Shown: piece by piece, positions 3,001 to 5,545 of the stretch
Layout of the letters: the number at the start of each line of letters is the position of its first letter
How positions within the stretch are numbered: the first letter of the stretch is position 1
Origin: a virus
Lineage: Duplodnaviria; Heunggongvirae; Uroviricota; Caudoviricetes
DNA: 5,545 nt
Virus record (IMG/VR): IMGVR_UViG_2534681774_000013
Span: 1-5,545 of that record
Reading direction: 5' to 3' (one strand)
Position numbers: made by a program

Positions 3001-5545
3001 AAAGGAAGTAAAGAATGAATAAAGCATTTGAACGATGGGTCCACCAGCGTTACGGCAATCGCTATGACCTGACGCGAGATGTTGACGGCTTCTACTGTCG
3101 TGAAGTTGTGAAGCGAATGTTTGAAGTGTGGTGCCACTGCCGTGGATGAAAATTTTATGAGGTTGGCATGCAGACAATCATCTATCAGATAACCCCCAGC
3201 AAATGGTGTACGGAGAGAGTCCTCATTGCATCAACAGGGCTAAAGCCTGGCACCATTGAGCGGGCAAGAAGAAAGTCATGGATGCAGGGAAAAGAATACC
3301 GCCATTACGCTGTAGAAGGTGATCCGGGGCACTACAGTGAATGCCTGTACAACATCGAAGAAATTATGCGATGGATCGAAAACCAGAAACAACCAGGTGC
3401 CAAAAATGCAAGTTCCGGTTAACCTGTTAATGCTCCTGGACGTCTGGGAGGTTTAATGAGTAACGCATCATACCCGACAGGCGTTGAAAACCATGGAGGA
3501 TCACTCCGTATATGGTTTCACTATAATGGCAAACGTGTCAGAGAAAACCTCGGTGTTCCTGACACAGCCAAAAACCGGAAGATCGCTGGTGAACTTCGCA
3601 CTTCCGTTTGTTTTGCAATCAGAATGGGGAGTTTCGACTACGCCGCGCAGTTCCCTAATTCCCCTAACCTGAAACACTTTGGTCTGGGAAAAAGAGAGAT
3701 AACCGTTAAGGCACTTTCGGAAAAATGGTTGGACCTTAAGAAAATTGAGATTTGTGCGAATGCACTTAATCGTTACCAGTCAGTAATTAAAAACATGTTG
3801 CCTATGTTGGGTGAGAAAAAACTGGTTTCATCCATAACAAAAGAGGATTTACTTTTCGCAAGGAGAGATTTGTTGACCGGTTACCAAAAGCTTTCTAATG
3901 GAAAGATTTCTTCCATAAAAGGGCGCTCAGTGGTCACAGTAAACTACTATATGACAACCATAGCTGGAATGTTTCAATTTGCAACAGATAATGGTTATAC
4001 CTCAGGAAACCCATTTAACGGTCTGGCACCCTTAAAAAAGTCCAAGGTAAAACCAGATCCTCTCACCCGTGACGAATTTATTCGTTTTATTGAAGCTTGC
4101 CGTCATCAACAAACAAAAAACCTGTGGATTCTCGCTGTATACACGGGTATTCGTCACGGGGAGCTGGTATCGCTGGCATGGGAAGATATAGATCTTAAAG
4201 CAAGGACTATAACCATCCGTAGGAATTATACAAAACTTGGCGAATTCACTCCACCAAAAACCGATGCTGGCACCGGAAGGACAATTCATCTGGTTCAACC
4301 AGCTATTGATGCTCTTAAAAGTCAGGCGGAAATGACCATGCTTGGAAAGCAACATTCTGTAGAGGTAAAGCAGAGGGAATATGGGAGAAGTACTGTGCAT
4401 AAATGCACTTTTGTTTTTAGTCCTCAGGTAATAAAACAGCGGCAGTTTTCCGGACCGCACTATAAGGTTGACTCCATCAGGGAGTCATGGACAAGTATCT
4501 TAAAACGCGCAGGTCTGAGACACAGAAAATCGTACCAATCCAGGCATACTTATGCATGCTGGTCACTTGCCGCTGGAGCTAATCCTAGTTTTATCGCAAG
4601 CCAGATGGGCCACACAAACGCACAAATGGTATTCAATGTTTACGGAGCATGGATGAAAGACAACAATCACGAACAGATAGAACTCCTTAACAAAAGACTA
4701 TCTGAAAGTGTCCCATGTATGCCCCATAAGAAAGCTGGGTAAAATAAAAACTTGCAAAATCAATTAGTTTACCCTTAATCCCTGTCACGTTACGCGCGTG
4801 GCAGAGGCGTTACGGGTTGCTGAAACCGCAACGGACAGACGGCGGTCATCGACTGTTCAACGATGCCGATATTGACCGTATCCGCGAGATCAAACGCTGG
4901 ATCGACAACGGCGTGCAGGTCAGCAAAGTTAAAATGCTGCTCAGTAATGAAAATGTTGATGTGCAGAACGGCTGGCGCGATCAGCAAGAAACATTACTGA
5001 CCTACCTGCAAAGCGGCAATCTGCATAGCCTGCGAACGTGGATCAAAGAGCGCGGTCAGGATTACCCGTAAGCGCATCATTTAAACCGTCTTTCGCCTCC
5101 CTTTCCTGTTTCCGATACTAATGTCCATTTTCGCAGTAAAAGGACATTTAAGATGAATGCACGAAAAGCGGTACTGGCAGATAATCCAGAATTGATCCTG
5201 CGTGTGCTACAGCTGAGATTTGACGAGTCACTGTCGTACCCGCGCATTTCTGCGCAGACTGGTGTCAGCAAAACCGCCATTTTTTCTCTGGTGAGGCGAT
5301 TTCACCAGGTATTCACTGACTGGCCTCTTTCCGGTGAATATTCCTGCGGGCAACTGGCCCGGGCTCTTTTCCCGGGGCGATACCCTTCAGCCCCGACCGT
5401 GACTCAGCCTGTGAAAGCAGAGAAACCCCGCCGGAACCGATTTTCACCGGAGTTTAAATGGAGACTGGTTCAGCAAACTCTTTTACCCGGTGCCTGTGTC
5501 GCACAAATAGCTCGAGAGAATGGAATTAACGATAACCTGCTCTTT

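Follow-up and report, generated by a model that had tools for sequence, protein, structure and literature searches.

The 5,545-bp stretch analysed here (IMG/VR record IMGVR_UViG_2534681774_000013, positions 1 to 5,545; hereafter the window) carries, towards its right-hand end, part of a doubly interrupted copy of mlrA (yehV), an Escherichia coli activator gene for curli and biofilm formation. To judge from sequence, a lambdoid prophage lies in this gene, and positions 4743–5071 form its junction on the integrase side (attL as named for lambda). The window is identical to the whole of the draft E. coli contig AIHE01000028.1 (GCA_000250295.2), and both its ends are contig ends. The explanation that we consider very probable is that the prophage entered mlrA by site-specific integration, that no functional MlrA can be made from the integrase side, and that the insertion sequence (IS) IS679 then struck the gene after codon 112.

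The junction is assigned as attL because one core sequence is common to attB, attP and the window, and because the adjoining integrase is nearly identical to those of phages that integrate in yehV. When the window was aligned with the K-12 attB, the attP region of the free phage vB_EcoS_phi330, the junction in strain H19 and the VT1-Sakai prophage record, all five sequences were found to have the 20-bp core CCTGTCACGTTACGCGCGTG in common; from 4801 onwards the window tracks K-12, whereas the phage diverges. An exact search found the core in every locus that was fetched, including both prophage ends of strain 12A. In the VT1-Sakai GenBank record the same 20 bp are annotated as the phage attachment site and are followed by a truncated yehV, in keeping with the sequence-only reading, which had placed the prophage in mlrA/yehV and had named this gene as an integration site of Stx1-converting and related lambdoid prophages in O157:H7. 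The record of phage JLK-2012 lists an attL feature beneath its match. Because the free phages PhiR5_1, phi330 and BP-4795 match the phage side as far as 4781 (PhiR5_1) or 4800 (phi330 and BP-4795), the segment 4743–4800 can be taken as phage attP sequence, these three being phage genome records and not integrated junctions. The window integrase is identical to that of strain 12A at 428 of 428 residues, to those of VT1-Sakai and phi330 at 421 of 428 each (98.4% for VT1-Sakai), and to that of PhiR5_1 at 419 of 428. Both the integrase type and the sharing of the core between attB, attP and the junction are those of a VT1-Sakai-type mlrA/yehV prophage. At the other end of a two-ended prophage, the junction of 5′ mlrA, core and phage would be expected to read GATATTAAC-CCTGTCACGTTACGCGCGTG-ACGCAACATTTTT. 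The phi330 record itself (PV189401.1, 5776–5815) holds the core twice in direct tandem, which may reflect the joining of prophage ends with both copies kept, probably during assembly of the record, rather than a real duplication.

The host side of the junction is an internal piece of mlrA. Relative to the K-12 gene, 4781–5067 aligns without gaps from nucleotide 49 (codon 17) with five mismatches, all of them synonymous (98.3% identity), while there are no mismatches (100%) to mlrA of the O111:H2 strain 12A, and the translation equals MlrA residues 17–112 at 96 of 96 positions. A BLAST search with 4743–5071 matched mlrA in 5,423 of the 5,426 complete E. coli genomes (lowest E-value 8e-169), an agreement well outside what chance would give, and the exact core was located at 4781–4800. 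The sequence-only reading had ended the integrase at 4742 and had set mlrA about 40 bp further on, from about residue 15. The stop and the identity of the gene stand; the distance is 38 bp, and the host sequence begins exactly at codon 17.

As far as can be read from its frame, mlrA is not reconstituted on the integrase side. In the mlrA frame, the phage arm opens with a TAA (4745–4747) and continues with K, L, A, K, S, I (ATT 4763), S (AGT 4766), L, P, L and I before the host residues P17, V, T, L, R, A, W and Q are reached. An in-frame TAG at 4766–4768, followed by LPLI, had been proposed and has to be corrected: the TAG lies at 4765–4767 and is out of frame, and the in-frame stop is the TAA at 4745–4747, after which KLAKSISLPLI follows. 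The accompanying claim that neither ATG nor GTG precedes the gene in frame was borne out and can be extended, as no ATG, GTG or TTG occurs in the mlrA frame between this TAA and the TTG at 4817, and no intact start or N terminus lies upstream of 4781. A fusion protein of int and mlrA was also considered and is ruled out by the different reading frames of the two genes. In K-12 MlrA, Pfam recognises three full domains, MerR_1 (residues 4–72), MlrA_helical (81–155) and MlrA_C (162–238). The window frame retains positions 16–68 of the 69 in MerR_1 (1–15 are gone) and 1–32 of the 75 in MlrA_helical (33–75 are gone), and Pfam finds no MlrA_C in it. Neither the canonical start and complete N-terminal MerR helix-turn-helix (HTH) of a functional MlrA nor its complete helical and C-terminal domains are therefore present. 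A scan of 4500–5300 returned no sigma-70-like promoter, and a terminator scan of the same interval gave a single terminator-like match at chance level, on the minus strand. These results uphold the earlier view that the start codon, the first HTH residues and the promoter have been lost. From the sequence, together with published complementation in other strains, we infer that functional MlrA cannot arise from the integrase side, because the phage arm supplies only TAA-KLAKSISLPLI, without a canonical start or an obvious Shine-Dalgarno sequence.

It should be noted that, at the same junction in H19 and 12A, RefSeq (PGAP) calls a 233-amino-acid (aa) ‘HTH-type transcriptional regulator MlrA’ (WP_029208472.1 and WP_027661874.1) and does not mark it as a pseudogene. 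The coding sequence (locus 6021–6722 in H19, locus 23663–24364 in 12A) begins 18 nt before the core, which corresponds to the ATT at window 4763–4765, and its length fits six phage-derived residues plus MlrA residues 17–243. Taken at face value, the phage arm would reconstitute a working mlrA, with translation starting at ATT 4763 and ISLPLI replacing residues 1–16. Besides the two annotations, such a start is favoured by a frame that is open from 4748 and by the orientation of int, which lies on the same strand and makes read-through transcription conceivable. ATT is, however, a rare and weak initiator, and by eye (no scan was run) the 16 bases that precede it, AAAACTTGCAAAATCA, contain no purine-rich Shine-Dalgarno sequence. 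The absence of a promoter-like site and the loss of the first 15 MerR_1 positions also speak against it, as does the published observation that strains with the insertion form no curli until mlrA is supplied in trans (PMC3874044); in the window, moreover, the frame stops at codon 112 anyway, owing to IS679. We regard a working, ATT-started mlrA as extremely improbable, and the RefSeq call is probably an annotation artefact of homology-driven start picking and does not speak for function. Because an intact 233-aa MlrA is annotated at this junction, genome surveys in which the presence of mlrA is read off the annotation could overrate biofilm competence, the ATT call having been verified in two genomes, H19 and 12A, and the junction being present in 458 complete genomes.

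The second disruption of mlrA, its truncation at codon 112 by IS679, had gone unmentioned in the sequence-only reading. Homology to mlrA stops at 5067, where K-12 and 12A read GATTACCC-CGCCCAGAC and the window reads GATTACCC-GTAAGCGCATCATTTAAACCGTC. From there to the contig end (5068–5545, 478 bp), the window follows, at 100% identity, the left end of an element that in strain 12A is 2,704 bp long. Alongside tnpA and tnpB, this element has a transposase labelled ‘IS66-like element IS679 family’ by RefSeq, and the name IS679 was taken from that label. The terminal inverted repeat beginning GTAAGCG, as expected of an IS66/IS679 element, is found at window 5068. The terminal repeats of the 12A element are imperfect, the left one reading GTAAGCGCATCATTTAAACCGT, as at window 5068, and the right one GTAAGCGGCTCGCCAGAACCGT; being imperfect, they were missed by a generic inverted-repeat finder and were located by a direct search for GCTTAC. 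The three genes tnpA-tnpB-tnpC that make up an IS66/IS679 element of about 2.7 kb are all present in the 12A copy, and the window holds codons 1–131 of tnpA. Among phage records, the IS part gave one match, an unannotated one in phage GER2. IS679, of the IS66 family, was first described on plasmid pB171 of the enteropathogenic E. coli O111 strain B171. The mlrA piece is truncated at both ends because the TAA that closes its frame (5069–5071) belongs to the terminal repeat of IS679, and only a 287-bp internal fragment of the gene is left.

The join at 5067/5068 reads as simple transposition because the IS terminus begins exactly at the break. Had IS679 simply inserted and duplicated 8 bp of target, one would expect its right end (...GGTTCTGGCGAGCCGCTTAC) to be followed by GATTACCC and then by CGCCCAGACACTC, the rest of mlrA. 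Alternatively, a deletion or inversion mediated by the IS might have left this join as a scar, or the draft assembly might be chimeric here, with the 3′ part of mlrA absent or elsewhere. The contig does end within a multi-copy IS, so that the right IS end and the 8-bp target duplication lie outside the view; the flanks of the IS679 copy examined in 12A do not match each other (AATAATCC versus TGATATCG), so that this copy has no intact target duplication; and the junction is missing from the genomes searched. BLAST of 4600–5545 found the mlrA::IS679 junction in none of the 5,426 complete E. coli genomes, none of which spans both junctions, and an exact search for a 45-mer of the junction in the species-representative collection gave no matches, which is uninformative with one genome per species. 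A break at the very first base of the terminal repeat GTAAGCG is nevertheless what transposition yields and is unexpected of a random mis-join, and mlrA is disrupted whichever variant holds. We consider a scar or chimera unlikely and retain a simple IS679 insertion.

Nine unrelated public contigs with the prophage junction also end within three bases of mlrA codon 112. They were considered as further IS junctions and rejected, as their last bases, CCCC(GC), are those of intact mlrA (CCCCGC). That these ends coincide most likely stems from the look-up by exact protein, which was made with the 84-aa remnant ORF (open reading frame) and would select for them, although a common assembly break point is possible.

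We propose the following sequence of events. As the sequence shows, recombination by the tyrosine integrase at the 20-bp core CCTGTCACGTTACGCGCGTG split mlrA at codons 17–23; the whole prophage came to stand between the promoter, start codon and initial 16 codons on one side and the remaining codons on the other, and the remnant on the int side ends at codon 112, at IS679. MlrA activity would be lost as a result, and expression of csgD and curli would be reduced, as published experiments in other strains suggest. IS679 would have entered later, after codon 112, and what was left of the helical domain, together with the C-terminal domain, would thereby have dropped out of the frame. Most simply, this insertion may represent neutral decay of an already dead gene. 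Several points weigh against this explanation. The contig ends at 5,545 bp, which leaves the far prophage end, the 3′ part of mlrA past the IS and any stx outside the view; what was integrated could be only a remnant; in principle a deletion, an inversion or, less plausibly still, a join made during assembly could lie behind the IS junction; and RefSeq gives an intact, ATT-started MlrA of 233 aa at the same junction in H19 and 12A, and AUU-initiated translation could occur at a very low level.

Precise excision of the prophage would probably not restore mlrA here, because IS679 cuts the downstream remnant, and the double hit therefore bears on the idea that prophage induction switches biofilm capacity back on. 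It could be supposed that two independent hits, at codon 17 (prophage) and codon 112 (IS679), lock in the loss of this curli and biofilm activator in a form that excision cannot reverse. If this were true and recurrent in a lineage, it would argue for selection fixing the curli-off state over a reversible, phage-controlled switch; for the present case we find such a lock-in very doubtful.

Occupation of mlrA by a prophage is an already known and established cause of a curli-negative, poorly biofilm-forming phenotype in pathogenic E. coli. Insertion abolishes curli, Congo-red binding and biofilm formation, and mlrA supplied in trans restores them (PMC3874044), which agrees with the statement of the sequence-only reading that insertion is known to reduce curli and biofilm formation. 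The frequency of the junction was assessed with a 140-bp probe across phage, core and mlrA (4721–4860), counted at ≥80% coverage. It was present in 458 of the 5,426 complete E. coli genomes (8.4%), and most of the remaining genomes match the probe only from about 4775, on the host side. Among O157 strains, surveys give 96.5% occupation of yehV, in some cases by phages other than Stx phages (PMC8309913); for non-O157 Shiga toxin-producing E. coli, smaller surveys arrived at 21–28% (PMC3874044). The window is one more example of this known occupation, and its sole unusual feature is the double mlrA lesion, which is itself an ordinary type of event.

The features of the window are collected in Table 1. 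Integrase and excisionase are both of full length and are 98–100% identical to their counterparts in yehV-integrating phages. The gene at the position equivalent to the excisionase is annotated xis or xisR in VT1-Sakai, H19 and 12A. In strain H19 the mlrA prophage has an integrase (locus 4713–6000) that is annotated as frameshifted, while that of the window is intact.

Table 1 Features of the window (5,545 bp).
Feature	Position	Strand	Remarks
Early-region phage genes	1–3422	+	Include Ead/Ea22-like protein, DUF4222, DUF551-tailed protein, excisionase
Excisionase gene	3168–3422	+	84 aa; Pfam PF06806 (putative excisionase), E 2e-29
Tyrosine integrase	3456–4742	+	428 aa, intact; stop TAA 4740–4742; Pfam Arm-DNA-bind_2 and Phage_integrase
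Integrase-proximal phage arm of attachment site	4743–4780	+	Identical to phi330 attP, H19 and VT1-Sakai; unrelated to K-12 upstream of core
Attachment core	4781–4800	+	20 bp, CCTGTCACGTTACGCGCGTG; mlrA codons 17 to 23
Internal mlrA remnant	4781–5067	+	287 nt, codons 17–112; partial MerR HTH and first 32 MlrA helical-domain positions
IS679 (IS66 family), left end	5068–5545	+	Terminal repeat from 5068 (GTAAGCGCATC...); TAA 5069–5071; Pfam HTH_Tnp_1
tnpA	5153–5545	+	Codons 1–131 in window; runs past contig end

With only 4.8 kb of phage DNA visible, the prophage might be short and cryptic, reduced to int-xis and the early region, instead of full-length and inducible. Among stx1-negative O157 strains, truncated phages are reportedly common in yehV (PMC8309913), and the phage ORF at 1413–1929 has a +1 frameshift relative to PhiR5_1 and 12A. 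Against this stand the full length of both int and xis and the state of the closest relative, 12A, whose prophage of about 50 kb has, between its two att copies, the full complement of genes for head, tail, lysis and replication. We judge a remnant only somewhat unlikely, and favour the end of a full-length prophage. No stx genes are seen in the window, the late phage region lying outside it. The sequence-only reading had left the phage type unassigned, and this caution was justified, since 12A, with an identical integrase and junction, has a prophage without annotated stx.

The frameshift in the early region is due to an extra C at window 1684/1685 (TTTCCAG as against TTTCAG in phage PhiR5_1 and strain 12A). 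In PhiR5_1 the gene is undivided and 516 bp long; in the window the extra C, whether a genuine frameshift or a draft-sequencing error, splits it into two ORFs, 1413–1691 and 1585–1929. The left part of the window is mosaic. Matches to PhiR5_1, VT1-Sakai and BP-4795 begin only at 862, the start of the Ead/Ea22 gene, and those to strain 12A only at 1100, so that 1–1099 is a different mosaic module; window 1–2068 matches phage Lys8385Vzw at 99.8%. In the ORF at 1926–2684 (252 aa), the DUF551 profile is matched at positions 1–16 only, at the very C terminus of the protein, and the domain appears to be cut off; the equivalent 759-bp ORF of 12A is labelled ‘phage protein’. An Rfam scan of the window gave no match.

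Among systems that have been described, the window is readily compared with VT1-Sakai (Sp15)/CP-933V, the Stx1 prophage in yehV (mlrA) of O157:H7, with which it shares the core, the position in mlrA and the int-xis layout. The nucleotide identity to VT1-Sakai is about 95%, with mosaic differences upstream of 862, and the host background of the window resembles O111:H2/B1 strains and not the O157 background of VT1-Sakai. The closest complete relative is the O111:H2 strain 12A (NZ_CP077479.1), which matches window 1100–5067 at 100.0%, the one difference located being the extra C at 1684/1685. No stx is annotated anywhere across the 12A prophage, including the interval between the tRNA genes and the lysis genes. 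Its far end adjoins btsS and reads ATG GCG CTT ... GAT ATT AAC, the core and TGA, that is, mlrA codons 1–22 with an immediate stop; on this reading it is the expected partner of the window junction, as seen in the relative. In 12A, however, mlrA runs uninterrupted past codon 112, without an IS, although IS679 sequence is found at 12 matching places in its genome. With the 2,704-bp element of 12A, the window shares the left repeat GTAAGCG..., the tnpA frame and 478 bp at 100% identity.
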